From NCBI GenBank assembly GCA_965215605.1, contig OZ244070.1, positions 2,048,001 through 2,112,000 on the forward strand: a DNA stretch of 64,000 bases. The letters are read 5' to 3'. The notes beneath the pieces were generated by a model. That model saw only the letters and a program-made list of their open reading frames with translations. It did not search any database and had not been told where the DNA came from. Positions 15,172 through 34,458 of this stretch are shown here, one piece after another; within the stretch, counting starts at the first letter, position 1; the number at the start of each line of letters is the position of its first letter. The stretch is from an uncultured Candidatus Binatia bacterium (GTDB lineage: Bacteria; Desulfobacterota; Binatia; UBA9968; JAJDTQ01). The translations under genes were made by a program, and so were the position numbers.

Positions 15172-15262
15172 ATTTCTCCTTTGAAAAAGGATAAATATAT
15201 ATGATTCTATCCTTTTCATAATAAGAAATATTTATTATATTCTCCTTTTCACAAGGAGAGTA
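15172..15262. promoter_or_regulatory. Three palindromic operator-like boxes at 33-bp period
   Basis: TCCTTT starts at 15177, 15210, 15243; box 1 atttctccttt-gaa-aaaggataaat, box 3 tattctccttt-tca-caaggagagta covers the RBS. Confidence 0.8.
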
Positions 15263-16611
15263 TGGTTTTGGAACCGACCCTGACAACCTTCCGGCAAGTG
15301 TTGGCCGAACAGCTCGCTGGATCTTTGCAAGCACCGCCTCCTTCCCACACTCCCCGCCGCGTCCATGGCCTTACGCGGTTTCCGGGCAAGGCGACCGCGG
15401 TGGTCGGTATGCGCCGGGCCGGCAAAACCACCTTTCTGCACCAGTTGCGCCATGAGTTCATCACAACCGGCGCGGCTTCTTCACGGGTCCCTTACGTATC
15501 CTTCGAGGACGAGCGGCTGACCGGTTTGGAGGGCCGCCATCTGGATCTGCTGCTTGACGAATACCAACGCCTTTCGACCGGGGAGGCAAGCGATTCGGCG
15601 GTCATGTGGTGTTTTGACGAGATCCAGTTGGTGCCGGGCTGGGAGCGCTTCGTGCGCCGGTTGCTCGATACGGAGGCCGTGGAGGTGTACGTGAGCGGTT
15701 CCTCGGCGACACTACTGTCGCGTGAGATCGCTACGGCGTTGCGTGGCCGGGCATGGCAGGTGCTCATGCACCCGTTCGGCTTCGACGAGGCGCTTCGCCA
15801 TCAGGGGACGGAGCTTCCGGAGCGGACGGAGGTCCTGTCCCGCGAGCAACGCGTGCGTTTCGAGCGGGAATTCACGGCGTGGCTGGTTGCCGGCGGGTTT
15901 CCGGAAGCCCAGGGGCTGGACACCGCGCCGCGGCACCAACTGCTGCGCGACTACGTGGACGTGGCGGTGCTTCGCGATGTCATGGAACGTCACGGAGTCG
16001 GCAACGTCACCGGGCTCCGGTGGCTGGTGCGGCAATTGCTCGGCAACGCGGGCGGTCTGTTCAGTGTCGAGAAGCTCCACGGGGCGCTCAAATCCCACGG
16101 AATCGCCATCGCCAGAGATACGGTGCACCAACTCCTCGGCTACCTCGAAGACTGCTTTCTCGTGCGCGTGGTGTGGATGGAGTCGAGTTCCGAGCGGCAA
16201 CGGATGGTGAATCCACGGAAGGCGTATCCGGTGGATCCGGGTTTGATCCCCGTGTTCGACCGTACCGGCCGCGCCAACATCGGACAGGCCCTGGAAACCG
16301 CGGTGCTCATCGAACTGGAGCGGCGGCGCAGCGAGGTTACCTATGTGCGCACCGTACAGGGATACGAAGTGGATTTTCTGACACGGGAGGCGGACGGAGG
16401 CCGGGAATTGATACAGGTTTGCGCCGATGCGTCGGAGCCATCCACCGCGGAACGCGAACTCCGCGCCCTGGTGGCGGCGGGGGAGCAGTTCCCCGACGCC
16501 CGCCTGCGCCTTTTGACTCTCGACCGTGACGGCATACCCGACCCGTTGCCGGACGGCGTGGTGGCGCAGCCTGCCTGGATCTGGATGCTTGGATACGGCG
16601 ATCCCGAGTGA
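15262..16611 (+). CDS. AAA_14/DUF4143 ATP-binding protein (copy 1)
   Basis: GMRRAGKTT, FDEIQ, SGSS, GGFPE, NPRKAYPVDPG, C-terminal EVDF..IQV nuclease-like motif. Confidence 0.9.
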   Translation: MVLEPTLTTFRQVLAEQLAGSLQAPPPSHTPRRVHGLTRFPGKATAVVGMRRAGKTTFLHQLRHEFITTGAASSRVPYVSFEDERLTGLEGRHLDLLLDEYQRLSTGEASDSAVMWCFDEIQLVPGWERFVRRLLDTEAVEVYVSGSSATLLSREIATALRGRAWQVLMHPFGFDEALRHQGTELPERTEVLSREQRVRFEREFTAWLVAGGFPEAQGLDTAPRHQLLRDYVDVAVLRDVMERHGVGNVTGLRWLVRQLLGNAGGLFSVEKLHGALKSHGIAIARDTVHQLLGYLEDCFLVRVVWMESSSERQRMVNPRKAYPVDPGLIPVFDRTGRANIGQALETAVLIELERRRSEVTYVRTVQGYEVDFLTREADGGRELIQVCADASEPSTAERELRALVAAGEQFPDARLRLLTLDRDGIPDPLPDGVVAQPAWIWMLGYGDPE

Positions 16612-16620
16612 CGGGCGCCG

Positions 16621-17385
16621 TTACCGGTGCAGCCACTTGGGCTTGCGTTTCTCCACGAACGCCTGGACGCCTTCCTCCACGTCCTCGGTTTCCAGCAACT
16701 CTTTCAGATAGATTTCTTCGGAACGCGCGAGGGCGGCGGCGAGCTGCTGGAGGCCGATCTCCCGCAGGCCCTTGAGGGTGATGCGCAGCACCGCGCGGCT
16801 CTTGTCCAGCAGTTCGTTCCGAAGGACCTCCAGCGCCTCGCCGAGTTGGTCCCGCGGCACTACCCGGTTCACGAGCCCGATGGACTCGGCTTCCCGCGCC
16901 GACAGGCGGCGGCCGGTGAGGATCATCTCGGCGGCCCGGTGGTAGCCGATCTGCGAGGAGAACCGGGCCAGGGCCACCGGCGGAAAGCAGCCCACGGTGA
17001 CCTCGGGGGTGGCGAAGAGGCTCTCCTCGGAGGCCAGCACCAGGTCGCAGGAGGAGGCCAGCTCGCAGCCCCCGCCCAGGCAGACGCCGTCCACCACCGC
17101 GACGGTGGGCTGACGGAGGCTCATCAGCTTCCGGATGACCCCGTGCACCAGCTCGAGCATTTCTGGTACCTGCGCCCGGGTGTGGTCCTTCACATCCACG
17201 CCGGCGGAGAAGGCGCGTCCGCCCGCGCCGCGGATCTCCACGAGATCCACGCCGGCGTCCTGGTCCAGTTCGTCGAGAATCTGGCGCAGTTCCCGTAACA
17301 ACGCGAGGTTGAGGACGTTGAGGGGTGGGCGGTCGATGATCACCGACGCGACTCCACCGGTTCTATCGAGGTGTATTTCCGCCAT
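16621..17385 (-). CDS. Enoyl-CoA hydratase/isomerase (dienoyl-CoA hydratase-like)
   Basis: [39 protein letters not shown]. Confidence 0.9.
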   Translation of the reverse strand: MAEIHLDRTGGVASVIIDRPPLNVLNLALLRELRQILDELDQDAGVDLVEIRGAGGRAFSAGVDVKDHTRAQVPEMLELVHGVIRKLMSLRQPTVAVVDGVCLGGGCELASSCDLVLASEESLFATPEVTVGCFPPVALARFSSQIGYHRAAEMILTGRRLSAREAESIGLVNRVVPRDQLGEALEVLRNELLDKSRAVLRITLKGLREIGLQQLAAALARSEEIYLKELLETEDVEEGVQAFVEKRKPKWLHR

Positions 17386-17420
17386 GGTTACATTCCTGTG
17401 CTTGTCCCCCGTGCCTCCCA

Positions 17421-17449
17421 CCTGGACCCCGGGTCAAGCACGGGGTGAC
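17421..17449. repeat. REP-like palindrome, family A
   Basis: cctggaccccgggtcaagcacggggtgac. Confidence 0.8.
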
Positions 17450-17462
17450 GATTTGGAGGCAG

Positions 17463-18974
17463 CTAGAACTGGAACACCAGCGACTTGATGGTGACCGGCA
17501 CGGTCCCCGACGGTTCCAGCACCCTGCCCAGGTCGATGAAGTCGAAGTCCCGCAGGGTGATGCCGTCCAGGGCCAGCACCTGGCTCCGGAGGCCGAAGTC
17601 CTGCTTGAGGATGGTGCCCACCAGGCCGGCCATGTCGTGATCGAATACCAGGTAGATGGGCCGTTCGCGCGCCATGGTGCGCGGCAAACCCTCCATCAAC
17701 CCGCGGCAGAACGCCGCGATGCGAAAGGCGGCGGGCGGTCCCTGCCACACGAAGACCAGCGCCACCTCGGCTTCGCCCTCGTTGAGATCGAAGGACCGGA
17801 AGTGACCCTGGATGGTCCGTGCCATGACGGCCGGGTCGATGTCGCCGTCCAGGTCCACCGGCGGACGCAACACCTGGAGGTTCTTGCGCGGCAGCAGGTC
17901 GTCGTCGGAGCGATAGATGGTGTTGCCGGACACCTGGACGGTGTGCTGCGCCGCCCCCATGACCGTGGCCCGGATGCACTCCCGTGCGCTTACCAGCGGC
18001 GCCGGCAACTCGCCTTCGTCGATGCGGCGCCGCAGCGCCCTGCCCAGCGGCGCCCCCATGTCGCCGTGGGACTCCCGCTCGTGGCCGTAGATGTACTCGC
18101 TGACGCCGCCGGAGAAGACCACCGCGTCGCAGTCACGGGATCCGTTCAGGGGCGGCGTCACCCATAGCGGCTCCAGCTCGGGACCGGCGGCGCCGCCCCG
18201 GGCCAGGGTCAGCACCGTCTCCGCCATGTGGTCGGCCAGCCGCTCGATATCGCCGGGGCTCGTCCGGTCCCCCACGTTCCAGTCCAGTCCCGCGTGGCCG
18301 GCGAGGGTCTTGCCGCCGGGCTCCAGCACCGTGATGGTGCCGTCGCCGTCGGTGGCCAGCAACCGTCCGCCCACGTGAAAGGCGGCGGTGCCGACCACCC
18401 GTCCCGCTTCGGCCATGGCGAGCTTGGTGGTGCCGCCGCCGATGTCGATGTTGAGCACGCGGCAGCGCTCGTTTGCCGACCAAGCCACGGCGCCGGAGCC
18501 GTGGGCCGCCAGCAGCGCCTCGAAGTTGTGGCCGGCGGTGGCGCAGACGAAGTCGCCGCGCTGATCGGCAAAGAGGTCCGCGATGGCGCGGGCATTGTTC
18601 CGCCGGATCGCTTCGCCGGTGAGAATGATCGCGCCGGTGTTCACGTCGTCCGGCGTGAGCCCCGCCTCCTGGTACGCGTCGTCCACGAGCCGGCCCAGAG
18701 CGCCGTCGTCGATGCGTTCGCGGTTGGCGGTGTAGGGGGTGAAGCGGATAGGGGAGAGGTAGAGCGTCTTCCTCTCCGTGACCACGAAGCGGCTGGACAG
18801 CTCCCGTCCCAAGCGCCGCAGCACCAGGCGCGAGAAGAGGATCTGGGACGTGGCCGTGCCCACGTCGATGCCGACGCTGGTGAGCGTGATGGTGTCGAGC
18901 TTCCAGAGAGGGTGGTCTTCCTCTTCCGCCGGCGCCCCTCCGTCGTGGTCGTGATCCTCTCCGATGTCGTGCAT
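17463..18974 (-). CDS. EutA-like reactivating factor (ASKHA ATPase)
   Basis: SVGIDVGTATSQ, GAIILTGEA, FVCATAG, DIGGGTTK, FSGGV, IRATVMGA, VPVTIKSLVF. Confidence 0.85.
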   Translation of the reverse strand: MHDIGEDHDHDGGAPAEEEDHPLWKLDTITLTSVGIDVGTATSQILFSRLVLRRLGRELSSRFVVTERKTLYLSPIRFTPYTANRERIDDGALGRLVDDAYQEAGLTPDDVNTGAIILTGEAIRRNNARAIADLFADQRGDFVCATAGHNFEALLAAHGSGAVAWSANERCRVLNIDIGGGTTKLAMAEAGRVVGTAAFHVGGRLLATDGDGTITVLEPGGKTLAGHAGLDWNVGDRTSPGDIERLADHMAETVLTLARGGAAGPELEPLWVTPPLNGSRDCDAVVFSGGVSEYIYGHERESHGDMGAPLGRALRRRIDEGELPAPLVSARECIRATVMGAAQHTVQVSGNTIYRSDDDLLPRKNLQVLRPPVDLDGDIDPAVMARTIQGHFRSFDLNEGEAEVALVFVWQGPPAAFRIAAFCRGLMEGLPRTMARERPIYLVFDHDMAGLVGTILKQDFGLRSQVLALDGITLRDFDFIDLGRVLEPSGTVPVTIKSLVFQF

Positions 18975-18992
18975 GGCCTGGTCGCGCCCGGA

Positions 18993-20228
18993 TCAGTCGA
19001 TGAAGCTGCCTTCGGCGTCGGGGAGGTTGCCCTGCTCGCCCGGCAGGTTGCCGTGCTCGTCCGGGAACAGGACCTTGACGGCCTCGGCGCCGGCCTCGCC
19101 GGTGCACCACGGCACCATGTTCTTCATCCGGCAGGTGATGCCGCGCCTGGCCAGCTCTGCCTCGAAGATCTGATGGATCTCCGGATCCTCATCCTCGTAC
19201 TCCACCTGGTAGCCGCCCTTCTTGCCGCTGACCTCGCCGGTGCGGAGCACGGTGGATTCCTGCGCCTGCCAGCGGTTGACCGCGTACTTGCGCGACAGTC
19301 CCTGGTTCATCACCAGGTAGGTGGCGGGCGTCTCACCCACGTTGAAGTGCTGGTGCAGCCACAGGCCCTGCCCGGCGCCGGAGAGGTAGAGGCTCCCTTC
19401 CTTCCAGTCGCAGCGAATGCGCTCCTCGTTGCCGCGCTGGGCGAGCACGTAGCCCTCGCCTTCGATGATGTACAGATGCGCTCCGGGGCCGTGGCGGTGG
19501 GATTTCTTGTAGTAGCCGGACTCGAAGCGGGACACGTGGGACTCCATCAGCCCGGAGCCCATGACCATGAACGCGTTGGTGCCGCCGCCGCCCCGGCTCT
19601 TCCACTCGTAGAGGGGCAGCTTGCGGATGTCCGGGATGAAGTTGGTTTCCCATACCCGCCCGCGGTACAGCTTGGCCTCGGCGTTGAAGTAGTCGGGCTC
19701 GCCCTGGTAGCGGTCGTCGAAGTCGTAGTTGTTGTCGAAGATGAAGTGCTCGCTGTTCCACTGCCGGAAGAGTTGCGGCAGGTCGGTGACGGAGAACCAT
19801 CGGGCCGGCTGCGACAGGCTGGCATTGAAGAACTGGTGCCAGGCGTTGGTGGGGGGCACGAAGTAGCTGCCGGGCCCCCACTCGAAGGTCTGTTTCTCCC
19901 CGCCCTCGCGCCACACCGAGCAGGAGCCGTGGCCTGAAACCACGTAGATGGCCTCGGTGTACATGTGCCGCAACGGCGCGGTGTAGCCTCCGGGCGGCAG
20001 CTCGACGATGTGCTCGTCGCCGCCGTTGTCGCCGTCGAGGTAACACAGCGCGCCCTTGACGCCGTCCCCCTTGCGCGGCCACGGGCCCACTTCCACGGCC
20101 TTCATGTCCTCGATGAAGACCCCGCCCACGAGCGGGGCGCCCTCGCGGTTACGCCACTCGGAATAGGAATCGACGCGGGTCAGCGCGGGTTGTTTTTCCG
20201 GGTCCAGGGGTTGGGTGGGTATGGTCAC
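18993..20228 (-). CDS. Bicupin protein (gentisate dioxygenase-like fold)
   Basis: Two cupin motifs: RHMYTE..WHQFFN and SHRHGPG..LHQHFN; GTG start. Confidence 0.85.
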   Translation of the reverse strand: MTIPTQPLDPEKQPALTRVDSYSEWRNREGAPLVGGVFIEDMKAVEVGPWPRKGDGVKGALCYLDGDNGGDEHIVELPPGGYTAPLRHMYTEAIYVVSGHGSCSVWREGGEKQTFEWGPGSYFVPPTNAWHQFFNASLSQPARWFSVTDLPQLFRQWNSEHFIFDNNYDFDDRYQGEPDYFNAEAKLYRGRVWETNFIPDIRKLPLYEWKSRGGGGTNAFMVMGSGLMESHVSRFESGYYKKSHRHGPGAHLYIIEGEGYVLAQRGNEERIRCDWKEGSLYLSGAGQGLWLHQHFNVGETPATYLVMNQGLSRKYAVNRWQAQESTVLRTGEVSGKKGGYQVEYEDEDPEIHQIFEAELARRGITCRMKNMVPWCTGEAGAEAVKVLFPDEHGNLPGEQGNLPDAEGSFID

Positions 20229-20368
20229 GATGTCGCCTCTTTCTGTGATTTTGGGGAAGGGTAGGCGATTAAATGGAGTCCTGTCAATCCAGCAGCATGC
20301 TCCGGCGCTCGCGATCCTCCGGGAAGGGCGCGAAGGAGGCGGCGGCAAGGAAAACGGTTGCAGGACAA

Positions 20369-20460
20369 TTACAAATGCCTGGTTATAGTCGTTGTAAATG
20401 CCAGGTCATCTACGTTATAAATAATCGGTCAGATCCGTTTCAGATGCCCGGTCAGTATTG
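20369..20460. promoter_or_regulatory. Four direct repeats at 23-bp period (TTnnAAATGCCnGGTCA)
   Basis: AAATGCCTGGTTA 20373, AAATGCCAGGTCA 20396, AAATAATCGGTCA 20419, AGATGCCCGGTCA 20442. Confidence 0.8.
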
Positions 20461-20486
20461 CCGAAGCCAAGTGGGACGAGAACGAA

Positions 20487-21734
20487 ATGTACATGCCGCG
20501 GATCGCAGACAAGGAGCTTGCCGATCGCCTGGGGGCCGCCGGGGCCGTGCTGATTGAGGGTCCGAGAGCCTGCGGCAAGACTGAAACAGCCCGTCAGCAG
20601 GCCGCCAGCGAAGTGCAACTCGACGTCGACGAGAACGCTCGCCACGCCATGGCCATCGATCCCGCACTGGTGCTGGAAGGAGACAGCCCGCGGTTGATCG
20701 ACGAGTGGCAGATCGAGCCTGCCATCTGGAACCATGTCCGGCGCGCCGTGGATCGGAGGCGCAGCCCCGGACAGTTCATACTGACCGGCTCGGCAGTGCC
20801 CGCCGATGACATCACCCGCCACACCGGCGCGGGCCGAATATCCCGCATCAGGCTGCGCACCATGAGCTCCTTCGAAGCGGGATTTTCCACTGGCCAGGCG
20901 GCTCTTTCAGACCTGATGCGCGGCCGGTTCGAGGGTTGCTCGCGCCAGGGCACCACGCTGGCGGAACTCGTCGCGCACCTGAGCCGGGGCGGTTGGCCGG
21001 GCGACCTGAAACTGGCGGACCCGGCGTGCATGACAGCCCGCATCGACTATCTGGAGGAAATCCGTCGAGTCGACATTGTCCGGGTTGACGGCGTTTCCCG
21101 GAATCCGGACCATGTCGCCCGCGTGCTGCAATCGCTCGCGCGAAACGTGGGAACGCCGGTCAGCGGGCGCACCATCGCCGCGGACGCCGGCGGGGGCGAC
21201 GGCCCGTTGGACGAGGACACCGTGCGCGGTTACCTCGCTGCTCTGCGGCGGTTGATGGTGTACGAAGAGCAGCCGGCGTGGTCGCCGCGGCTTCGCTCCA
21301 GGTCCACGCTGCGGCGTTGGCCGAAACGGCACTTTGTCGACCCCTCGCTGGCGGTGGCGGCCCTTGGTGCAACGCCGCCACGGTTGTTGGCGGACCTCAA
21401 CTTCCTGGGTCTGTTGTTCGAATCCATGGTGTATCGGGACCTTTCCATTTATTCTCGTGTGTGCGACGCGAACGTCTATCACTACCGCGACAACACCGAC
21501 CTCGAAGTCGACACCGTGGTGCAGAACCGTCAAGGAGACTGGTGCGCCTTCGAGGTGAAGCTCGGCGCCGGACAGGTGGACGCCGCGGCGGCGTCTCTGT
21601 TGAAGTTCCGGGAACGGGTGGACTCGGCCGCGGTCGGCGAACCTCAAATGCTTGGCGTTATCGTGAGTTCCGGTTATGGCTATGTCCGTAACGACGGCAT
21701 CGCCGTCATCCCCATTGCCGCGCTGGGCCCATGA
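20487..21734 (+). CDS. AAA_14/DUF4143 ATP-binding protein (copy 2)
   Basis: GPRACGKT, IDEWQ, ILTGSA, GGWP, PKRHFVDPSL, EVD..FEVK. Confidence 0.9.
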   Translation: MYMPRIADKELADRLGAAGAVLIEGPRACGKTETARQQAASEVQLDVDENARHAMAIDPALVLEGDSPRLIDEWQIEPAIWNHVRRAVDRRRSPGQFILTGSAVPADDITRHTGAGRISRIRLRTMSSFEAGFSTGQAALSDLMRGRFEGCSRQGTTLAELVAHLSRGGWPGDLKLADPACMTARIDYLEEIRRVDIVRVDGVSRNPDHVARVLQSLARNVGTPVSGRTIAADAGGGDGPLDEDTVRGYLAALRRLMVYEEQPAWSPRLRSRSTLRRWPKRHFVDPSLAVAALGATPPRLLADLNFLGLLFESMVYRDLSIYSRVCDANVYHYRDNTDLEVDTVVQNRQGDWCAFEVKLGAGQVDAAAASLLKFRERVDSAAVGEPQMLGVIVSSGYGYVRNDGIAVIPIAALGP

Positions 21735-23645: not shown

Positions 23646-23646
23646 G

Positions 23647-26180: not shown

Positions 26181-28466
26181 TTAATTCCCGGCTTCCCGCA
26201 GCGCCCGCAGCACGTTCTCGGGGCTCAGGGGGAGCCTGCGGACGCGCACGCCGGTGGCGTTGTAGATGGCGTTGGCGATGCAGGCCATGGGCGGCACGGA
26301 GCCGATCTCTCCCGCGCCCTTGGTGCCGTAGGGTCCGGCGCCGGGGTAGCCCGGCACGGTGACGGCCTCGATGCGCGGCAGCATGTTGATGGTCGGCATC
26401 AGGTAGTCGACGAAGGTCGGGTTCAGCGTCCGCCCGTCGCCGTCGTGCACCACCTGCTCGCACAGCGCTTGGCCCAGGCTCATGGCCGCGGCGCCTTCGA
26501 TCTGGCCTTCTACCGCCTTGGGATGCACCACGAAGCCCACGTCATGCACGGCCACGTACTTCAAGATCTTCACGTTGCCGGTGTCGGCGTCCACCTCCAC
26601 CAAGGCGGCGTGGGTGGTGAAGGGCTGAGAACTGCCGCGCTCCCGCTCGTCGGCCTGGGAGGCCTTGGAGTCGAAGTAGCCGCGGCCGATGACGTCGCCG
26701 ATCTCGTTGTGTCCCGCGTTGCAGACCGACGCCAGCGACACCGACCGTGACGGCGCGCCCTTGACCTGGACCTGCCGGTCGACGATTTCCAGGTCCTCCG
26801 GGCTGGCCTCCAACTGTCCCGCGGCCATGCGCAGGATCTGTTCGCGGGCGTCCTCGGCCGCCAGCTTGACGGCGTTGCCGGAAACCAGCATCGAGCGGCT
26901 GCCCACGGTGCCCGCGTCCCAGGGACTGGCGTCCGTGTCCACGTTGAGCACGGTGACGTCGTCGGTGGAAATGCCCAGCACCTCGGCCACGATCATGGGG
27001 ATGCCGAAGGGGGCGGCGGTGCCATAGTCCACCTTGCCGATGTGCACCGTGGCGGAGCCGTCCTCGTTCATCTTGACCACCGCGCCGCCGCCGGGTCCCG
27101 CGCCCTCGATCCACGCCCCGGTGGCGAACCCGATGCCCTGGTTCTTTCCGAGCTTGACCTTGCCCCAGCCGATCTTCTCCTTGGCGAGGTTCAGGGTCTC
27201 GGCCAGCGAGCTGTCCCGCAGCTTGGGGACGCCGACGATGCCGTCGCCCTTCTCGGGCACGTTCTTCAGGCGGAACTCGATGGGGTCCATGCCCAGCTCG
27301 GCGGCGAGGGAGTCCATGTGGGATTCCATGGCGAAGGTGGCCTGGGGGCCGCCGGGGCCGCGCACCGGACCGCATACCTGCTTGTTGGTGTAGACGGTGA
27401 AGCCGTCCATGTGGATGTTGGGCAGGCGGTACCAGCCGCCCACCATCTGGGTGCAGCGGCCGCCGGCCTGGTTGCCGAAGCCCGAGTAGCCGCCGGCGTC
27501 GTACACCACCTTGCCCTGGCGCGCCACCAGGGTGCCGTCCTTCCTGGCGCCGGTCTTGATCCAGATCTTGCAGCCGGAGCGGATGGTGGTGGAGATGGTC
27601 TCTTCCGCCTTGTCCATGACGATCATCACCGGCTGCCCCGCGGTCAGCGCCAGCAGCGCGCAGATGGGCTCCAGGCCCGCGCTGGAGGTGACCCCGCTGC
27701 CCTTGCCGCCGAAGCCGCCGCCGATGCCGGTGGAGATGACCCGCACCTGGTTCAGGGGCAGTCCCACGAGGTTGGCGACTTCCGTGCGCACCGGGAAGGG
27801 CGCCTGGGCGTTGGCCCACACCGTGAGGCGGCCGTCCTCCTCGGGCCGGGCCGCGGCGATGCGCGGCTCCAGGTACTGGGGATGGATCATCCTGGTTTCG
27901 TAGACCTCGTCCACCACCACGTCGGCTTCCGCCATGGCGGCCTCGGCGTCGCCGATGTTCACCGCCGCGTAGCCGCAGACGTTCTTGACCTGCACGCCTT
28001 CCGGCAGGTTCTTGGGCAGCGGCATGTCCTCGTGGATGGTCGGCGCCGACTCCTTCATGGTCTCTTCCGGGTCCACCACCACCGGCAGCGGCTCGTAGGT
28101 GACCTTGATCTTCCCGAGCGCTTTCTTGACCAGCGCCTGGCTGTCCGCCGCCACCGCCGCCACCGGGTCGCCCATGTAGCGGACCTTGTCCTTGGCGAGG
28201 ATGTAGCGGTCGATGTAGGAGCGGCCGTAGCGCACGTCCGGCGCATCCGCGGCCGTCACCACCGCGCGCACGCCGGGGATGGCCTTGGCCTCGCTGGTGT
28301 CGATGCCGACGATTTTCGCGTGGGCATGCTCGCTCCGGAGCACGCCGCCGCTGAGGGCGTCGGGCAGGTTCAGGTCGATGCCGTAAACGCCCTTGCCGAC
28401 CACCCGCTCGACCCCGCCCTTGCGGGGCATGTCGGTTCCCAGGACGGTGTATTCAGCCTTTGCCAT
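26181..28466 (-). CDS. Xanthine dehydrogenase-family molybdopterin-binding subunit
   Basis: GGGFGGKG, VRGPG loop, QIEG, TKGAGE catalytic Glu, IANAIYNATG. Confidence 0.93.
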   Translation of the reverse strand: MAKAEYTVLGTDMPRKGGVERVVGKGVYGIDLNLPDALSGGVLRSEHAHAKIVGIDTSEAKAIPGVRAVVTAADAPDVRYGRSYIDRYILAKDKVRYMGDPVAAVAADSQALVKKALGKIKVTYEPLPVVVDPEETMKESAPTIHEDMPLPKNLPEGVQVKNVCGYAAVNIGDAEAAMAEADVVVDEVYETRMIHPQYLEPRIAAARPEEDGRLTVWANAQAPFPVRTEVANLVGLPLNQVRVISTGIGGGFGGKGSGVTSSAGLEPICALLALTAGQPVMIVMDKAEETISTTIRSGCKIWIKTGARKDGTLVARQGKVVYDAGGYSGFGNQAGGRCTQMVGGWYRLPNIHMDGFTVYTNKQVCGPVRGPGGPQATFAMESHMDSLAAELGMDPIEFRLKNVPEKGDGIVGVPKLRDSSLAETLNLAKEKIGWGKVKLGKNQGIGFATGAWIEGAGPGGGAVVKMNEDGSATVHIGKVDYGTAAPFGIPMIVAEVLGISTDDVTVLNVDTDASPWDAGTVGSRSMLVSGNAVKLAAEDAREQILRMAAGQLEASPEDLEIVDRQVQVKGAPSRSVSLASVCNAGHNEIGDVIGRGYFDSKASQADERERGSSQPFTTHAALVEVDADTGNVKILKYVAVHDVGFVVHPKAVEGQIEGAAAMSLGQALCEQVVHDGDGRTLNPTFVDYLMPTINMLPRIEAVTVPGYPGAGPYGTKGAGEIGSVPPMACIANAIYNATGVRVRRLPLSPENVLRALREAGN

Positions 28467-28490
28467 GGGTCTTGACTCCTTCCCACCCGT

Positions 28491-28961
28491 TTACGACATC
28501 CGCTTGGCGGCCAGTTCGACGGCGTCGAAGATCTTCGTGTAGCCCGTGCACCTGCAGATGTTTCCGGAGATGGCCTCCTCGACATCCTCGGCCGTGGGGC
28601 TCTTGGTGCGGTCCAGCAAGGCCTTGAGGGAGACGATGAAGCCCGGTGTGCAGTAGCCGCACTGCACCGCGCCGGTGTCGATGAAGGCCTGTTGCACCGG
28701 GTGCAGCTCGGCGCCGTCGGCGATGCCCTCCACCGTGACCAGGTCGGCCCCGGCCGCGTCCGCTCCCAGGACGACGCAGGAGTTCACCGGCTTGCCGTCC
28801 ATGATGATGGTGCAGGCGCCGCACTCGCCCGTGTTGCAGCAGAGCTTGACGCCCTTGTAGCCCAGCGTGTCGCGCAGGAAGTCCACCAGCGCGGTGGACG
28901 GCTCCAGCTCGGCCGTGTGAGTTTTGCCGTTTACCGTGAGTGTGATCTCCAGGCCCATCAC
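28491..28961 (-). CDS. (2Fe-2S)-binding small subunit of Mo-hydroxylase
   Basis: CNTGECGACT, NSC, QCGYCTPG, NICRCTGY. Confidence 0.95.
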   Translation of the reverse strand: MMGLEITLTVNGKTHTAELEPSTALVDFLRDTLGYKGVKLCCNTGECGACTIIMDGKPVNSCVVLGADAAGADLVTVEGIADGAELHPVQQAFIDTGAVQCGYCTPGFIVSLKALLDRTKSPTAEDVEEAISGNICRCTGYTKIFDAVELAAKRMS

Positions 28962-29827
28962 GCCACCTCCTTACCGGTTAACGCTTGCCAGCACTGTTCC
29001 AGCCCCCGGCGCGTCAGCGCGTCCACGATCCAGCCGCGGTACTCGCCGCTGCTGCGCTGGTCGGTGATGGGGCTCGACTCGGATGCCGAGCTTGCGCCGG
29101 CCTCCTTCAAGAGGGCCGCGTCAAGCGCCTTGCCCGAAACCAGCGCCTCGGTCTTCGGCGCGCGGACGGGCGTGGGCGCCACCGCCCCCAGGCCGATGCG
29201 GACATCGTCCAGGGCGGTCTTGTCTCCGTTGGTCCTCGCCATCACGGCGACTCCCACCATGGCGATGTCCATGGGGCCGCGCACCGCGTGCTTGAGGTAC
29301 ACGGCGTGGCTCCCGGCCGCGGGAAAGGGCACCGAGATGCCCGTGAGCAGGCCCTTGGAGCCGAGGCTGGTCTTGCCCGGCCCGCGGAAGAACGCGCTAA
29401 AGGGCTCGGTGCGGACGCCGTCGGAGAAGGTCACCTCGGCCGCGGCCTCCAGCACCAGCAGCGGCGTCAGGGTCTCGCCCGAAGGAGAGGCCCGGCAGAT
29501 GTTGCCGCCGATGGTGGCGGTGTTCCGGATCTGCAGCGAGGCGAACTGGTGCGCCGCCTGCCACAGCAGCGGCAGCCGCTCGCGCACGAGGTCGCTCTCC
29601 TCGAGCTCGTGGATGGTGGCCAGCGGGCCGATGTGGACGCCGCCGTTGCTCTCGCGGATAGCGTTCAGGTCCGGGATGCGCTTGATGTTCACGAGGCAAC
29701 CCGGCTCGTCGCTGTACTTGATGTCCACCATCACGTCGGTGCCGCCGGCGATGACCTCGGCCTGATCACCGTGCTGGTCCAGCAGCGCGAGCGCCTCGTC
29801 GACGGTCTTGGGTTCGAAGTAGTCCAT
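28958..29827 (-). CDS. FAD-binding medium subunit of Mo-hydroxylase
   Basis: AGGTD, QIRNTATIGGN, GAVAPTP. Confidence 0.93.
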   Translation of the reverse strand: MDYFEPKTVDEALALLDQHGDQAEVIAGGTDVMVDIKYSDEPGCLVNIKRIPDLNAIRESNGGVHIGPLATIHELEESDLVRERLPLLWQAAHQFASLQIRNTATIGGNICRASPSGETLTPLLVLEAAAEVTFSDGVRTEPFSAFFRGPGKTSLGSKGLLTGISVPFPAAGSHAVYLKHAVRGPMDIAMVGVAVMARTNGDKTALDDVRIGLGAVAPTPVRAPKTEALVSGKALDAALLKEAGASSASESSPITDQRSSGEYRGWIVDALTRRGLEQCWQALTGKEVA

Positions 29828-30021
29828 GGATTCCTGCTCCCGGCTGTAGTCTTGATATGTCCTTCGCCCGTGTGTCTGTGGGTTCTCTTAGCCCAGTCGC
29901 AGGGCAGATGGCAAGAAGGGCAGGGAGGGTTCCAGTTGTCCGGTCGCGGTGTTATTGTCGTGGCGGGCGCCGGCGCCGCCGAGGCGCACCCTTACTTGAC
30001 ATCCACTCCGGAGGAACGGCC

Positions 30022-31044
30022 ATGGCGAAGGAAAGCACGGAGTACCGGGAGCACTGGGGGAGGGAGGGCTTCGCCGGGACCGGGGTGAACGTCACCCGCA
30101 CGCACCACAGTCCGGACTTCATCTCGGTCACGGGCCCGCATGTGCCGCACCGGCTGAACGTCGGCGCCGTGGCGTTGCCAGAGCGCGACGATGCGGAGGC
30201 GCTGCCCGTCGCTTTCCACGCGGGCCGCACGGGTGTCCAGCTCAGCGTGTCCGGACGCGCCCATCCCATGCCCTTCGTGGTGTCCAACGTCGAGGCCGAC
30301 GAGGTGCACTTCGTGCAGGAGGGAGAGCTGGAGTTCCGCACGGCCTACGGCACGCTCACCGGAGAACCCGGCGACTTCGTGGTCATTCCGCGCGGGATCC
30401 CGTACCGTGTCCGGCCCGAAACGGATTCGAGCCTTTCGGTCATCGTCGAGACCCCGGGAGCGCTCCGCTTCGATCCGTCGCCGACCTTCGGCTCCGGGCT
30501 CCGGTGCGCGGTGATCGGCGAAGACGAAGCCCAGGACGTGGAGACCGTGCTGCTGCTCAAGTCCTTCGACGGCGTCACCCGGTACGTCAAGCCGACGAAC
30601 CCGCTGGCCACCCAGGCCCTTGTGGACGGTCCCAGCCCGGTATGGAAGCTGAATCTCAGGGACGTCCCCACCGATGAGAACGGTCCTCCGGTCCAGTTCA
30701 TTGCGTCGCCCGGCCGGGACGAGCTGTTCTACAACCTGAGCGCCCGCCACCGCCGTCGCCCGCCCATCCACAACAACGTGGACTACGACGAGCTGATCTA
30801 TTACTTCGAGGGTCCCGGCGCCTGGGGCGGCGTGAACGAGCCCGGCATGCTGACCTGCGTGCCCAAGGGCGTGATCCACCACGGCCCCTCCGAGGACGTG
30901 CCCGAGGGCTACTACGCGTGGATGCTGGAGTCGCGCTGCACCCTGCGCCTGACCGACGCCGGCGCGGCCGCCGCGGAGCTCATGGAGACCGACCTCTACG
31001 GCCCCCACGCCACCAGCCGGGACGGCGCCGCCAACGGCCGGTAG
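30022..31044 (+). CDS. Homogentisate 1,2-dioxygenase-like cupin
   Basis: NVEADEVHFV..G, GDFVVIPRG, HNNVDYDE..HHGP metal motif; GGAGG RBS. Confidence 0.8.
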   Translation: MAKESTEYREHWGREGFAGTGVNVTRTHHSPDFISVTGPHVPHRLNVGAVALPERDDAEALPVAFHAGRTGVQLSVSGRAHPMPFVVSNVEADEVHFVQEGELEFRTAYGTLTGEPGDFVVIPRGIPYRVRPETDSSLSVIVETPGALRFDPSPTFGSGLRCAVIGEDEAQDVETVLLLKSFDGVTRYVKPTNPLATQALVDGPSPVWKLNLRDVPTDENGPPVQFIASPGRDELFYNLSARHRRRPPIHNNVDYDELIYYFEGPGAWGGVNEPGMLTCVPKGVIHHGPSEDVPEGYYAWMLESRCTLRLTDAGAAAAELMETDLYGPHATSRDGAANGR

Positions 31045-31062
31045 GTTCGGGAGACCGGGCTC

Positions 31063-32295
31063 TTGCGATGGCGTTTCCGCCGGCCCGCGAAGCGCGGCCG
31101 CACCCTGGCCGCGCTGGACGTTCGTGACTTCCGGCTGCTCTACATCGCTCTTTTCGGAACCTCGGTCAGCTATCAGCTCCAGCGCACCATCGAGCTCTGG
31201 CTGGTCTACGATCTCACCGGTTCCCCCCTGTTGACCGGTTTCACCGGCTTGGTCCGCGGTTTGGCTACGCTGGTATTCCAACTCGCGGGAGGAGTCGTGG
31301 CCGACCGTATCGACCGGCGGCGGTTCGTGATCCTGGTCCAGGGGGTGAATGCCCTGATCACCCTGTCCCTGGGGACGCTGGCTCTCACCGGCCTCATCGC
31401 GGTGTGGCACATCTACCTGGCGGCGTTCGTTAACGCGACCCTGACCACCGCGGCGGGACCGGCACGGACCGCCATGGTCCCGGGCCTCGTGCCGCGGGAG
31501 CTGCTGGTCAACGCCTTCGCGCAGATCGCGTCCGTCCGCAAACTGTCGCAGCTCGTGGGCCCCGCGGCGGGCGGCGTCCTGATCGGCGTCGCGGGCTCCG
31601 GCTGGACCTACGCGGTGGCCTGCCTGATCTATGTCGTGTCCGTCCCGATCATGGTGTGCATGCGCTACGAGTCCGGGCCGCTGGACCGGGAGCAGTCGCC
31701 GGTGAAGAGCCTGCTCGAAGGGGTCGCCTTCATCCGGCGCAACTCGCTGATCGTGGTCCTGCTGGTGACCGAGTTCGCGGCGGTCTTCTTCGGCAGCTAC
31801 CGGGCGCTGCTGCCGATCTTCGCCGTGGCCATGGGCCTCGGCCCCGAAGGCTTGGGCATCCTCCTGGCCGCGCCGGCGCTGGGCGCGCTCCCCGGAGTGG
31901 CCGCGGTCATGTGGCTGGGGAACATCTCGTACAAGGGCCTGTTCATCTCGTTCAGCGTCATGGCCTACGCCGGTTGCCTTTTCGGGCTGGCGTTCTCCAC
32001 GTGGTTTCTCGGGTCGGTGGCGATCCTGTTCCTGGTGGGCGTCTTCGATGCGCTGCAAGCCGTGGTGCGCCAGGTCGTGATCCAGGCCCGCACCCCGGAC
32101 AACCTGAGAGGACGCGCCGCGAGCTTCCAGCGCATACTGGGCGTGGGCGCCCCCTCCCTGGGCGAGGCCCACTCGGGCGCTGTTGCCGCGCTGATCGGCG
32201 CCCCCTGGACGCTGGTGGTGACCGCGGTAGTATGCATCGGGATCACCGCGGGGCTGGTGGTGAAGCGGCCGGATTTGCGGGACCGGGACCTGTGA
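31063..32295 (+). CDS. MFS transporter
   Basis: RDFRLL, GVVADRIDRR motif A, PDNLRGR. Confidence 0.9.
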   Translation: MRWRFRRPAKRGRTLAALDVRDFRLLYIALFGTSVSYQLQRTIELWLVYDLTGSPLLTGFTGLVRGLATLVFQLAGGVVADRIDRRRFVILVQGVNALITLSLGTLALTGLIAVWHIYLAAFVNATLTTAAGPARTAMVPGLVPRELLVNAFAQIASVRKLSQLVGPAAGGVLIGVAGSGWTYAVACLIYVVSVPIMVCMRYESGPLDREQSPVKSLLEGVAFIRRNSLIVVLLVTEFAAVFFGSYRALLPIFAVAMGLGPEGLGILLAAPALGALPGVAAVMWLGNISYKGLFISFSVMAYAGCLFGLAFSTWFLGSVAILFLVGVFDALQAVVRQVVIQARTPDNLRGRAASFQRILGVGAPSLGEAHSGAVAALIGAPWTLVVTAVVCIGITAGLVVKRPDLRDRDL

Positions 32296-32313
32296 TCGTG
32301 CGTGGGGAGAGGC

Positions 32314-32360
32314 TTGCGAAATGCTTGGTATCAGACTAAGTTTAAGAGACTAAGCTAGTT
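32314..32360 (+). promoter_or_regulatory. TA operon promoter/operator
   Basis: TTGCGA (32314)-17 bp-TAAGTT (32337); AGACTAAG repeated at 32333 and 32347. Confidence 0.55.
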
Positions 32361-32373
32361 AGATGGAGCGGCT

Positions 32374-32619
32374 ATGCGAACTGTAAACATGCACGAAGCC
32401 AAGACACATTTGTCCAGTCTCGTCGAGGCTGCCGCAAATGGAGAGCCCTTCATCATCGCGCGTGCGGGGAAGCCGGTGGTGAAGGTCGTTGCCGTGGAAG
32501 CGCCGGAATCGGCAAAGATGCGCCGAATCGGGTTTCTGGACGGCAAAATCTCGGTGCCCGAGGACTTCGATCGCATGGGCTCCGCTGAAATCGAGGCGTT
32601 GTTCGAGGGCGAGGAGTGA
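32374..32619 (+). CDS. Phd/YefM-family antitoxin
   Basis: VNMHEAKTHLSSLVE..GEPFIIARAGKPVVK, VPEDFD. Confidence 0.93.
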   Translation: MRTVNMHEAKTHLSSLVEAAANGEPFIIARAGKPVVKVVAVEAPESAKMRRIGFLDGKISVPEDFDRMGSAEIEALFEGEE

Positions 32620-33035
32620 ATCTCCTTCTGGACACCCATGTGCTCCTTTGGGCAGCAGGATCTTCTGAGCGGTTGCCGGAGGAGGGGCGGAGTTTGCTCG
32701 AAGAGCAAGAGACGCAGCCGGTCTTCAGCGCGGCGTCCATCTGGGAAATCGCCATCAAGAGCGGGATCGGGCGCTCGGACTTCCGCGTCAATCCTCATCT
32801 ACTGCGGCGAGGATTGCTGGAGAACGGCTACACGGAACTGCCCGTGACGGGTGCCCACGCGGTAGCGGTGGTATTGCTGCCGCCTCTACACAAGGACCCG
32901 TTCGACCGCATACTGATCGCCCAAGCCCAGGTCGAAGGGATCACGCTGTTGACGGCAGACAAGATGGTAGGACGATACCCGGGGCCGATCCGGGTGCTGG
33001 TAACGTCAAAAGGCTTGTGTCAGGGAGAAGAGTGA
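32616..33035 (+). CDS. vapC: PIN-domain VapC toxin
   Basis: LLLDTHVLLW, SIWEIAIK, HKDPFDRILIAQA, LLTAD; GTGA overlap with antitoxin. Confidence 0.93.
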   Translation: MNLLLDTHVLLWAAGSSERLPEEGRSLLEEQETQPVFSAASIWEIAIKSGIGRSDFRVNPHLLRRGLLENGYTELPVTGAHAVAVVLLPPLHKDPFDRILIAQAQVEGITLLTADKMVGRYPGPIRVLVTSKGLCQGEE

Positions 33036-33141
33036 TGGGACTCCCTGGGACCTGTTTTCGTGAGTTAAGACGGCGAACTGGATACGGTCCATGGAGGTAT
33101 GATTCTGGAAGACGCCGATGGGACGATGGGGTTCCTTTCAC

Positions 33142-33165
33142 AGGGCGACCGCCGGTCGCCCCTAC
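33142..33165. repeat. GTAG-type REP, family D (reverse)
   Basis: agggcgaccgccggtcgcccctac. Confidence 0.7.
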
Positions 33166-33260
33166 ATGTCATCGCGCGTCGCCGACCTCAAAGATCCCTG
33201 TGTAACTTGTCCCAGGAATTTCCGGGACACGACACTAACTAAGTTTCAAAGGGAATATAA

Positions 33261-33297
33261 CCTTGTAATCGTGGATCTGCATGCCATAATTACGAGG
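33261..33297. promoter_or_regulatory. Inverted repeat overlapping the promoter of ATPase copy 3
   Basis: ccttgtaatcgtgga-7 bp-gccataattacgagg (11/15 match); arms contain TTGTAA and TGcCATAAT, with ATG at 33298. Confidence 0.6.
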
Positions 33298-34458
33298 ATG
33301 ATTGAGCGACGAGTACTCCAAACCGTCTTGAGACGGCTGGAGCAGTTCCCGGCCGTGGCATTGCTGGGTCCTCGCCAAGTCGGCAAGACCACATTGGCCG
33401 AAGCCGTGGGCGCTGAACGGGAAAGCGTTTACCTCGATCTGGAGACGCAGTCGGGCCGCGAAAGACTGTCCGATCCGTCGGATTATCTCTCTGCACATGA
33501 AGACAGGCTGGTGATCCTGGACGAAGTGCAGGCAATGCCGGAGTTGTTCCAGGAACTCCGGAGCCTGATAGACCGGGGACGTCGCCGCGGCAGGCGAACC
33601 AACCGCTTTCTCATACTCGGGTCGGCGTCAATGGATCTTCTGAGGCAGTCGAGCGAGAGCCTTGCCGGACGTCTTGCGTACGTCGAACTGGAACCCATGG
33701 ACGTGTTGGAGGTCCTGCGCGACGACAGGGAGAATCTTTGGCTGCGCGGGGGGTTCCCGGACAGCTTTCTGGCAGGGGACGATGCCGCCAGCGCACTCTG
33801 GAGGGACAGCTTCATCAAGACCTACCTGGAGCGGGACATTCCGCAACTCGGCCCGCGAATTCCTGCCGAGACGCTACGGCGCTTCTGGACCATGCTGGCG
33901 CACACTCAAGGCCAACTCCTGAATGCGGCGCAACTGGCCCGCGCCCTTGCCGTCGACGGAAAGACTATCGCCCGCTACCTGGACCTCATGGTCGACCTGT
34001 TGCTGGTCCGTCGACTGCAGCCCTACCACGCCAACGTGCGCAAGCGCCTCGTCAGGTCACCGAAGGTCTACGTGCGCGACAGCGGTCTGGTCCACACCCT
34101 CCTCGGCCTCGATGACCGTGAGGCCGTGCTCGGCCATCCCGTGGCCGGCGGAAGCTGGGAGGGATTCGTCTTGGAGAACATCCTGCGGGCCGCTCCCGAA
34201 CGAACCCTCGCCAGTTTCTACCGCAGCGCCGCGGGCGCCGAGATCGACCTGCTGCTGGAAATGCCCAACCAGGAACTCTGGGCCATCGAAATCAAGCGCG
34301 GTCTCGCCCTGAAGCTCGAACGAGGTTTCCACCACGCACGGCAGGACCTGAAGCCGGATCGCTGCTTCGTGGTGTATTCGGGGGATGAGAGATACCCTCG
34401 GGGGGAGGGTGTGGAGGTTGTCGGACTGGAGGAACTATGTCGCACTGTTTCTCAATAG
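33298..34458 (+). CDS. AAA_14/DUF4143 ATP-binding protein (copy 3)
   Basis: GPRQVGKTT, LDEVQ, LGSAS, SESLAGR, RGGFP, SPKVYVRDSGL, EIDLL..IEIK. Confidence 0.92.
   Translation: MIERRVLQTVLRRLEQFPAVALLGPRQVGKTTLAEAVGAERESVYLDLETQSGRERLSDPSDYLSAHEDRLVILDEVQAMPELFQELRSLIDRGRRRGRRTNRFLILGSASMDLLRQSSESLAGRLAYVELEPMDVLEVLRDDRENLWLRGGFPDSFLAGDDAASALWRDSFIKTYLERDIPQLGPRIPAETLRRFWTMLAHTQGQLLNAAQLARALAVDGKTIARYLDLMVDLLLVRRLQPYHANVRKRLVRSPKVYVRDSGLVHTLLGLDDREAVLGHPVAGGSWEGFVLENILRAAPERTLASFYRSAAGAEIDLLLEMPNQELWAIEIKRGLALKLERGFHHARQDLKPDRCFVVYSGDERYPRGEGVEVVGLEELCRTVSQ

Follow-up and report, generated by a model that had tools for sequence, protein, structure and literature searches.

The three PDC-S01 proteins encoded in the window (the whole 64,000-nucleotide stretch of DNA analysed here) are probably one-gene, self-limiting ATPase-nucleases, each of which would repress its own promoter via a clade-specific operator, with defence or abortive infection as the most likely job. 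Each of the three genes, here called A1, A2 and A3, is preceded by a motif that appears, from its sequence matches, to be essentially private to it within the genome. This private DNA signature changes in step with the protein across many bacterial groups, and the most likely reading is autorepression, with each protein bound at its own promoter. For PDC-S01 we infer that the protein contacts the operator directly and represses transcription, that it depends on ATP, that it is an active nuclease and that it serves in defence.

Three members of a large family in one genome

A1 (15262..16611, + strand, 449 aa) matches PADLOC profile PDLC04787 (E 3e-89), and A2 (20487..21734, + strand, 415 aa) and A3 (33298..34458, + strand, 386 aa) match profile PDLC04790 (E 2e-64 and 3e-94, respectively). 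In a profile search, PF13173 (AAA_14) and PF13635 (DUF4143) were both matched in each protein; these two domains in one polypeptide, together with the PDC-S01 HMM match, place all three in PDC-S01/COG1373. A3 probably begins with the ATG at 33298, which the alignment of orthologues favours over the start at 33118 given by the ORF finder. By BLASTP, A3 shares 27-32% identity with A1 and A2, and A1 and A2 give no significant alignment with each other; A3 has no PDB sequence match and no NCBIfam match. An independent contig from the best-matching run, which may be the source sample, spans 14800-16936 with 0 differences.

The first-pass annotation had treated A1-A3 as a special trio. This is not borne out by the whole genome, which carries 26 PDC-S01 copies, A1-A3 among them: one triple of copies within 20 kb has P = 0.16 in simulation, and the three triples observed in the genome have P = 0.003. 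The description of the genes as having distinct upstream repeats holds. A3 is flanked not by housekeeping genes but by a Phd/PIN toxin-antitoxin pair and low-GC DNA at a variable spot.

PDC-S01, an ATPase fused to PD-(D/E)xK, is reported to rank fourth in frequency among prokaryotic defences, with about 39,000 detections (PMC12988326). Most PDCs, PDC-S01 included, are given there as candidates with validation pending (PMC12988326; 10.1101/2024.01.29.577857), and DUF4143/COG1373 was entered as "Unknown" (PMC3424549). Cis sites, autoregulation and clade-specific operators are absent from the sections of these accounts available to us (PMC12988326, PMC3424549), and no description of operators of this kind was found in the literature searched, which was mainly open-access.

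Putative operators upstream of A1, A2 and A3

The putative A1 operator array (15174..15260, unstranded) consists of three 21-nt palindromes of consensus TTCTCCTT-N5-AAGGAGAA (TCTCCTT-N5-AAGGAGA), which start at 15174, 15207 and 15240 with a period of 33, the middle one being degenerate. The direct repeat is significant against 200 dinucleotide shuffles (p = 0.005). The palindromes are the top three PWM matches in the 3.96-Mb contig (33.5, 27.3 and 8.4 bits; next 6.4), and the array is kept in 13/13 genus orthologues. By sequence, a -10-like box, TATATT (15236..15241, + strand), lies in the last spacer, the -35-like hexamer sits inside the palindrome preceding it, and a Shine-Dalgarno AAGGAG (15253-15258) is provided by the final palindrome, within its right arm. 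At 61 loci with A1-type (hereafter C-type) sites, the -10 score is 4.10 in the gene direction vs 3.39 in reverse. We infer from these sequence features that the A1 array overlaps a sigma70-like promoter in actual use.

Similarly, the putative A2 operator array (20368..20454, + strand) comprises four 18-nt direct-repeat units of consensus GTTRCAWATRCCNGGTY, starting at 20368, 20391, 20414 and 20437 with a period of 23 (p = 0.005, 200 dinucleotide shuffles). They take PWM ranks 1, 2, 3 and 5 genome-wide, and all of the 11 A2 orthologues have at least four units on the 23-bp register. In the sister clade (55-58% identity) and in plasmid homologues (40-43%), the 23-bp period is kept and the letters differ. 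A phylum-wide search of 400 genomes returned one match to A2 from another genus, with only a degenerate array.

The putative A3 operator is a single 37-bp palindrome, CCTTGTAAT...ATTACGAGG (33261..33297, unstranded), in which 11/15 arm positions are complementary. It too overlaps a sigma70-like promoter, with a -35-like TTGTAA (33263-33268) and a -10-like CATAAT (33285-33290), and ends at the start codon; the mRNA is, on this layout, probably leaderless. The palindrome is kept in 4/4 full-length orthologues, scores 36.0 bits (next genome match 17.3), and has outer arms in common with those of the sister clades, with a different interior. The best-scoring inverted repeat 5' of A3 (a region of 33-bp arms near 33200-33250, p = 0.015 vs shuffles) was dropped as the operator because it is not conserved, two orthologues lacking it.

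In the A1 clade and at A3, the site thus lies over the gene's own -35/-10/+1, as expected of an autogenous operator, so that bound protein would repress its own transcription. The earlier proposal of autoregulation is supported by this overlap and by the Orc1/Cdc6-like AAA+ plus winged-helix fold described below.

Motifs are private and switch with the protein clade

Upstream regions of 17/25 paralogues score as repeats vs 46/448 of GC-matched other genes (p = 8e-11), and 10/25 vs 10/448 do so at a stricter cut, the thresholds of both comparisons having been chosen after the family scores were seen; 8/25 paralogues fail the repeat test. In 28 genomes of the genus, every one of the 33 exact A1 palindromes maps to the A1 promoter or to the scar of one, whereas the control gave 0.

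A motif-only scan of GTDB with the C-type motif gave at least 110 loci, and 62 of the 110 among the matches listed adjoin a family gene. Of the 26 paralogues in the genome, A1 is the best match for all 62 genes, 61 of which have sites at period 33, and the A1-clade gene-plus-motif loci span 12 labelled phyla. A scan with a symmetric variant that had been predicted, TGTCC/GGACA (G-type), gave at least 121 loci, with a family gene at 62 of the 121 among the matches listed; 59 of these genes best-match sister or more distant proteins. Flanks are only about 300 bp in 30 of the C-type and 41 of the G-type loci. In a quick tree, which mixes phyla, the 46 C-type rows group as a single clade (SH-aLRT 100) nested within the G-type rows. 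The winged-helix residue E270 is found in 46/46 C-type and 0/28 close G-type proteins; T45, P77 and W165, in columns outside the winged helix, separate the two groups equally well, and the C/G switch happened once in evolution. As the determinant of C- vs G-type, residue R/K285 of the recognition helix was rejected because 6/46 C-type proteins carry K.

Starting from proteins of another phylum, C-type sites were found with 6/9 E270 proteins and G-type sites with none of them; non-E270 proteins had G-type sites in 4/13 and C-type sites in none. A palindrome of at least 7/8 pairs lies at the start in 18/21 cases of that phylum, and the best second copy is 32-33 bp upstream in 17/21. The site is thus private and covaries with the DNA-binding domain, with the C/G switch counting as one event. 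Cognate, paralogue-specific sites, as the first-pass annotation had suggested, are supported by motifs that are private, co-inherited across phyla and switched with the protein clade; the arrays are conserved upstream of homologues, and no global regulator explains the motifs.

The sites might alternatively serve a separate transcription factor, or form RNA hairpins that hide the ribosome-binding site, and the last A1 arm does have AGGAG and its complement, so that a hairpin would be possible if transcription started further upstream. However, with the -10 box immediately 5' of the last palindrome, transcripts from that promoter would not include the upstream arms; moreover, G-type sites keep the geometry without AGGAG, and the A2 units are direct repeats. 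Sites serving a separate factor are hard to square with motifs that are absent from the rest of the genome and accompany the gene across 12 phyla while its neighbours change. Both ideas are largely refuted and very improbable.

Predicted fold and nuclease domain

The A1 structure predicted from a 129-row alignment (pLDDT 94.3) comprises an AAA+ ATPase, a winged helix (helices 269-278 and 285-297) and a DUF4143 nuclease-like tail. The closest structural matches to the model are the archaeal Walker-type ATPases PAB2304 (2qen; Z 16.7, rmsd 4.6, 274 aligned) and SSO1545 (2fna; Z 16.6, rmsd 4.5, 275 aligned), a likeness that extends to STAND/NLR ATPases; these matches span A1 residues 25-334 at 14-17% identity, with the nuclease tail outside them. 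Orc1/Cdc6-DNA complexes are also among the structural matches, and the AAA+ plus winged-helix fold of Orc1/Cdc6 is present in the predicted structure. On this model, the A1 fold is Orc1/Cdc6- or STAND-like, although STAND NLR/Avs proteins carry a repeat sensor domain and PDC-S01 is without one. A single-sequence fold of A3 gave no usable model (pLDDT 33.5), and the A1 homodimer prediction (ipSAE 0.01) was weighed neither way.

The E-x-D...E-x-K motif is intact in A2, A3 and 126/147 non-A1 rows. The A1 tail has E-x-D...Q-x-C in place of E-x-K and so lacks the catalytic lysine. Because Q-x-C occupies the catalytic motif in 40/50 A1-like rows, the A1-clade nuclease may be atypical or dead, or may have an alternative active site.

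In the mechanism that we favour, the winged helix, held in its Orc1/Cdc6-like AAA+ frame, would contact a clade-specific operator that consists either of sites spaced by two helical turns (22-23 bp) or by three (31-33 bp), or of one long palindrome. Each paralogue would thereby cap its own dose of a potentially toxic nuclease, most likely employed in phage/plasmid defence or abortive infection, and a different operator for each would allow 20-35 copies to coexist in one genome without cross-talk.

Inheritance, mobility and replication

Within the genus, the genes are mostly passed on at a fixed locus, and where they are lost it is through deletions, many of which leave the operator behind; this leaves the earlier ideas of a mobile unit and of an iteron or origin weakly supported. 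For a mobile unit of gene plus array, one distant subclade with operator pairs at both ends speaks in favour and the A1 clade, with no terminal copies, against. A selfish cassette, in which the protein binds its own ends, the PD-(D/E)xK domain catalyses excision or transposition and promoter-less twins are scars or landing pads, is quite improbable. It would account for the operator pairs found 3' of the stop codon in three contigs of that subclade (L364/365, L409 and L433), with arms kept and spacer changed, and a single palindrome lies downstream of the gene at one further locus (L314). At two other loci (L240 and L202), both flanks carry a duplicated 18-33 bp from the end of the upstream gene. 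Also consistent with a cassette are the relocation of one orthologue together with its array (genome G010), the mixing of phyla in the tree, and the clean empty A2 site seen by empty-site comparison in 7/19 genus genomes, alongside ragged deletions elsewhere; a transposon origin is stated for other NTPase-plus-REase elements (PMC11342252). On the other hand, a terminal or downstream operator copy is present in 0/39 A1-clade genes and 0/25 close G-type genes, and none was seen by eye at both ends of A2 and A3 orthologues. Repeat scores of at least 11 between upstream and downstream regions occur in 7/197 genes vs 7/394 in a cross-gene control (means 7.6 vs 7.4), which is not clearly above the control, and no general pattern of operators repeated next to the stop codon emerged. 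Furthermore, 11/13 A1 orthologues are in the same genomic context, and lost alleles show ragged internal deletions, not one precise junction.

Periods of 22-23 bp are typical of plasmid iterons, and the fold is Orc1/Cdc6-like with sites adjoining the gene. Each paralogue might accordingly be imagined to fire its own origin or iteron set, for which the multiple orc/cdc6-adjacent origins of haloarchaea would be a precedent (PMC3528665). This is extremely improbable: the AT-rich patch amounts to no more than the promoter of 60-120 nt and leaves no space for an unwinding element of its own, the C-terminal part of the protein is a nuclease-like domain, and the 26 copies are dispensable and in a bacterium. 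Plasmid homologues are scarce (6 records at E 1e-60), and the annotation next to the two inspected lists no replication genes.

Gene-less operators and phage copies

Strong twin operators with no family gene are frequent, numbering 20-21 among the 110 C-type loci listed and 49 among the 121 G-type loci listed. Their -10 score is lower than that of gene-bearing operators (3.16 vs 4.28, p = 8e-8; in a second comparison 3.31 vs 4.12, p = 1e-7). These orphans were selected by exact pattern, so the conservation of their arms is partly circular; A1 orphans picked by locus number three, too few to show selection. Within the genus, selection on orphan arms was not shown, two genomes (G008 and G042) differing at 2/32 arm positions with flanks about 90% identical. 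As a regulon the orphan operators are not supported: their neighbours are mixed (helicases, HipA, PIN and metabolism; 79 proteins, drawn from 111 plus 9 phage ORFs), and of 10 orphan-bearing genomes, all incomplete MAGs, 0 have a C-type gene, two have G-type genes at 48-51% and one has a match at 34%.

Full-consensus G-type twins of period 33 also occur on phage contigs (L487, L492/L497 and L496; L498 with 27/28), as do C-type twins of the same period (L482/L484/L486), in about four or five phage lineages; the 2.5-5 kb covered around them contains no family gene. Between two related phages with 79.6% identity, 28/28 arm positions agree, as against differences at 4/24 centre and spacer positions. 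Six of the 14 G-pattern viral matches (L488-L490, L495, L499 and L500) were discarded as phage operators because they are terminal repeats. Three unannotated "phage" records are 27-31% identical to A3.

Plain autorepression leaves the intact arms and decayed -10 of the gene-less operators unexplained, and likewise the phage copies. One extension, compatible with autorepression, takes the array as an antidote: a sink that keeps the enzyme inactive until loss of host DNA or a phage-driven change frees its cutting, with orphan operators as immunity to an incoming copy and phage operators as decoys. The frequent promoter-decayed orphans, the conserved phage arms and the variable array copy number (1-3 for A1, 4-7 for A2) are in its favour. 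Against it, besides the circularity and small number noted above, TGTCC/GGACA-like phage repeats also exist with periods of 31 and 23 and as terminal repeats (10/14 hits), so that the arm motif has independent origins as well. By alignment search, a family gene is present on one viral contig, so the phage twins may be scars; the viral contigs have no close A1 relative and 0 matches to the A2 motif. We regard the antidote role as distinctly unlikely. Unlikely too is the broader picture of PDC-S01 as a one-gene immune switch, inhibited by its own operator, with a different code for each paralogue, and released on host DNA destruction or a fall in the ratio of sites to protein, in which promoter-dead operators would be immunity retained after gene loss and phage copies decoys.

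Known systems and implications

The autorepression that we favour resembles two known arrangements. C proteins of type II R-M systems have family-specific C-boxes 5' of their own gene, recognized by phylogenetic footprinting, often with a leaderless mRNA (PMC2632904), and they share with A1-A3 family-specific sites upstream of the regulator's own gene and the control of a nuclease. Unlike C proteins, A1-A3 have regulator, ATPase and nuclease in one polypeptide and the winged helix in an AAA+ frame, and no separate small HTH protein with endonuclease and methylase neighbours them in the window. Haloarchaeal orc/cdc6 genes, with many paralogues per genome and diverse cognate boxes adjacent to each (PMC3528665), pair an AAA+ plus winged-helix fold with adjacent boxes as in A1-A3, which differ in having sites over the promoter, no unwinding element, a C-terminal nuclease-like domain and a bacterial host. 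Elements of CR-NTPase followed by CR-REase, described as of transposon origin (PMC11342252, citing Zhang et al. 2016), are likened to PDC-S01 by their described architecture only, and the A1-A3 clades are without transposon ends.

An exact cognate DNA for each protein makes the PDC-S01 family testable at once, with E270 as a candidate specificity residue, and gives a reason to clone the genes with their native array, without which they may be toxic or silent. On the immune-switch reading, there would also be a readable code in which E270 goes with TCTCC, N/H270 with TGTCC, and K270 with TGTCAC-like arms and a 32-bp period. If the gene-less operators of phages are decoys, they would be a DNA-only counter-defence, and if the enzyme is indeed a switch held by its operator, the tens of thousands of members would be a natural library of orthogonal winged-helix/operator pairs. 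Private operators would explain how one cell tolerates 20-35 paralogous nucleases.

Three divergent paralogues and their upstream arrays

The genes A1 (15262-16611), A2 (20487-21734) and A3 (33298-34458) each encode AAA_14 and DUF4143 domains, match the PADLOC system PDC-S01, and are mutually distant (27-32% identity where alignable). They belong to a set of 26 DUF4143 genes in the source genome, and four genus relatives have 26-35 family matches per genome. Among relatives that carry a name, those nearest to A1 (77-87% identity) are mostly labelled Candidatus Binatia. PDC-S01 genes are clustered in the genome above chance overall (P = 0.003). Two further triples within 20 kb were found on the same contig at 1208554-1216852 and 1749273-1756230, a tandem pair included, and two paralogues are broken (at 1749273 and 2684703), one frameshifted and one 5′-truncated behind an RNase H-like gene.

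The predicted A1 model (pLDDT 94.3) is nearest to the archaeal ATPases 2qen (Z 16.7) and 2fna (Z 16.6), followed by NLR/STAND and Orc1/Cdc6 structures, origin-DNA complexes among them. These matches cover residues 12-333, and the tail was assigned from Pfam, motifs and PMC3424549. The E-x-D...E-x-K motif is retained in A2 and A3, and the A1 clade has Q-x-C. Judged by eye, the recognition helix begins with residues that do not vary inside an orthologue cluster and that differ between clusters.

The first-pass annotation held that each paralogue is preceded by a different repeat motif, and this was confirmed for all three: palindromes at 15174/15207/15240 for A1, direct units at 20368/20391/20414/20437 for A2, and a palindrome at 33261-33297 for A3. 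The upstream repeats of the paralogues exceed chance. For 25 paralogues a start could be located (starts picked by rule, one gene without a Walker A motif left out); an upstream repeat, inverted or direct, reaches P ≤ 0.025 against 200 shuffles in 17 of them. Seventeen of the 25 pass a score cut that 46 of the 448 GC-matched control windows upstream of other genes pass (P = 8×10−11), and 10 pass a stricter cut (10/448 windows); the cuts were set after the family scores were known, the control windows come from our own gene calls, and the paralogues are not fully independent of one another. A strong direct repeat was found in 14 of 47 non-A1 orthologue clusters, 12 of the 14 repeating every 22-23 or 31-32 bp (3/9 in controls).

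Predicted promoter geometry

Sites covering the -35 element and +1 are characteristic of repression. At loci with A1-like palindromes bearing TCTCC-type arms (C-type), a -35-like hexamer lies inside the first palindrome and a -10-like box in the spacer preceding the last one; the -10-like score is 4.10 of 6 in the direction of the gene and 3.39 in reverse (n = 61). The A3 palindrome includes a -35-like and a -10-like box and runs up to the ATG. A hairpin acting in the RNA is argued against, because the predicted mRNA lacks the upstream arms and the G-type variant sites described below lack AGGAG.

Co-inheritance and privacy of the arrays

Orthologues of all three genes keep their arrays. A1 was detected in 13 of 24 genus genomes, with one to three palindromes in 13/13; at least four units on the 23-bp register precede A2 orthologues in 11/11; and the A3 palindrome is kept in 4/4 full-length orthologues. 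The sister clade of A2 (55-58% identity) has CGCCGAATTRCCGGTT units with the 23-bp period unchanged, and two plasmid homologues (40-43% identity) have 23-bp arrays of other sequence. The sister clades of A3 have the outer arms in common and a different inner part. With the A1 motif as sole query, a scan of GTDB genomes gave at least 110 loci, 62 of which have a family gene or remnant downstream. A1 is the best match in all 62, and the period is 33 bp in 61, the scan having permitted 32-34. About nine of these loci, probably from the window's own genus because they are ≥77% identical to A1, are joined by others spanning 12 labelled phyla.

A global regulator could also explain such motifs. When matrices built from other genomes were run over the 3.96-Mb contig, the window's own copies ranked 1-3 for A1 and 1, 2, 3 and 5 for A2, and the A3 site scored 36.0 bits with the runner-up at 17.3. 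Exact copies of the A1 palindrome were counted in 28 genus genomes: there are 33, spread over 20 of the genomes, and every one lies at an A1 promoter or at the remnant left by gene loss (control, 0). In one genome (G010) gene and array were relocated together. With sites that are private in genome and genus, and an array that moved along with its gene, a global regulator is unlikely. Single A2-like units were also seen outside the A2 promoter, at 3582318 (22.2 bits) and 2125855 (17.8 bits) of the contig.

Joint change of motif and protein

TGTCC...GGACA arms were first met by chance in two relatives of 48-51% identity. We predicted that this G-type variant should mark the clade of those relatives, and scanned metagenomes. 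A family gene was found at 62 of at least 121 loci, with the twin directly upstream in 58; the best matches of these genes were loci L315 (33), L314 (12), L015 (11) and L316 (3), and A1 (3). A quick maximum-likelihood tree was built from 84 proteins. In it all 46 C-type rows group as a single clade (SH-aLRT 100) within the 36 G-type rows, and therefore the switch happened once and involved all four half-sites. At four columns (T45, P77, W165 and E270) the 46 C-type proteins are fully separated from 28 close G-type ones, and E270 lies where helix 269-278 of the winged helix begins.

In another phylum, 401 genomes were searched starting from the protein, with site type assigned by a strict pattern, and 22 new loci were obtained. 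E270 proteins have C-type sites in 6/9 and G-type in 0/9; non-E270 proteins have G-type sites in 4/13 and C-type in 0/13. The remaining loci mostly show more arm variants with the geometry preserved. In the geometry set (n = 21; L536 at a contig end and the 5′-truncated L540 left out, L314 added), the start-site palindrome has at least 6/8 pairs in 20 loci, against 42% of 315 background windows, and at least 7/8 in 18. The best second copy lies at 33 bp in 14 loci and at 32 bp in three, all three with K270 proteins. In these sequence comparisons motif and protein clade change together, with E270 as a candidate specificity residue.

Gain, loss and neighborhood

Both flanks are common to 11 of the 13 A1 orthologues, one flank to 1, and 1 is relocated. 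Among 14 other genomes, the A1 locus shows twin palindromes without the gene in 3, the array beside a gene that has an internal deletion in 2, a remnant without array in 1, the gene in 2, and repeats, an insertion or nothing in 6. The A2 locus is filled in 8 of 19 genomes, clean in 7, reduced to the array in 3 and to remnants in 1; joints in related populations remove parts of A2 (20412 to 20876; 20888 to 21550). At the A3 locus, a hotspot for toxin-antitoxin genes and insertions, sister-type palindromes without the gene were seen by eye in six genomes. The genes are thus inherited vertically and lost repeatedly, which would fit a costly gene, and on a longer scale they have also been transferred between phyla. 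Operator copies at the stop codon were found in 0/39 A1-clade genes and on three contigs of one distant subclade.

Other elements were observed around these genes. A Phd/YefM antitoxin and PIN toxin pair (32374-33035), inserted between an MFS gene and A3, has its own small upstream palindromes (cagactaag/cttag-type) and occurs in relatives with or without A3. Downstream, 34586-35829 holds a low-GC 312-aa ORF (0 Pfam, PADLOC or NCBIfam matches) and then a broken PIN gene; in G021 this ORF recurs at the same hotspot without A3. REP-like short palindromes (gtaggggcgaccg...ggtcgccc and ttcgacttcgcttcgctacgctcag types) lie at 33140-33190 and at many genus loci (such as L023, L007 and L006), often inserted beside family genes; in L023 one splits the array from the start. 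At the paralogue loci L240 and L202, an 18-33-bp copy of the upstream gene's 3′ end follows the ATPase gene, resembling an integration scar. At L095, L102, L162, L124 and L138, A1-clade genes or orphan operators directly precede probable defence-island genes, namely a DEAD-box helicase and a gene that is presumably of DUF499 type.

Twin sites without genes

Gene-less twin sites, which plain autoregulation would not by itself explain, make up 20-21 of the at least 110 C-type and 49 of the at least 121 G-type scan loci, and their -10 boxes are weaker than those of gene-linked twins chosen by the identical pattern. A C-type gene-less twin occurs in one phage (3/5 viral hits). Three phages have full-consensus G-type twins, and a fourth has a near match inside its small-terminase ORF. 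Of 14 hits in a viral scan with free period, four (three phages) are 33-bp G-type twins, seven belong to one phage group at 31 bp, two are at 23 bp and one is a terminal repeat; the ORFs holding or adjoining the 31- and 23-bp hits we take to resemble replication initiators. The phage-borne sites could be left over from captured genes, could have arisen by convergence, or could be decoys.

In a tRNA-rich phage (L487/L405/L416), the twin G-type site beside tRNA-Ile(tat) overlaps a promoter-like stretch; the phage gene directly behind this stretch encodes 131 aa and has a Shine-Dalgarno sequence. Separately, small 13-15-kb viral contigs (L489/L490, L499/L500, L495) have inverted terminal repeats of TGTCC/GGACA units at 33-bp spacing; as far as compared, no relation to the ATPase family was detected for them.

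Known context and significance

PDC systems are candidates that were recognised because they lie embedded within other defence systems, according to 10.1101/2024.01.29.577857, whose main text does not contain 'S01'; PMC12988326 and PMC13356809 give PDC-S01 abundance figures. C-boxes (PMC2632904) and haloarchaeal orc/ORB pairs (PMC3528665) are regulatory analogues of these operators. The PDC-S01 family is already known, and its cis code is absent from the papers searched, where we found no description of these operators in work on the family, its regulation or DNA decoys. Added here are the C/G switch, predicted and then confirmed, a candidate residue, genus-wide privacy, the three-locus scar series and the phage-borne sites. 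Taken as a whole, the arrays are real and family-wide, and they are quite probably cognate self-operators, a reading with good support.
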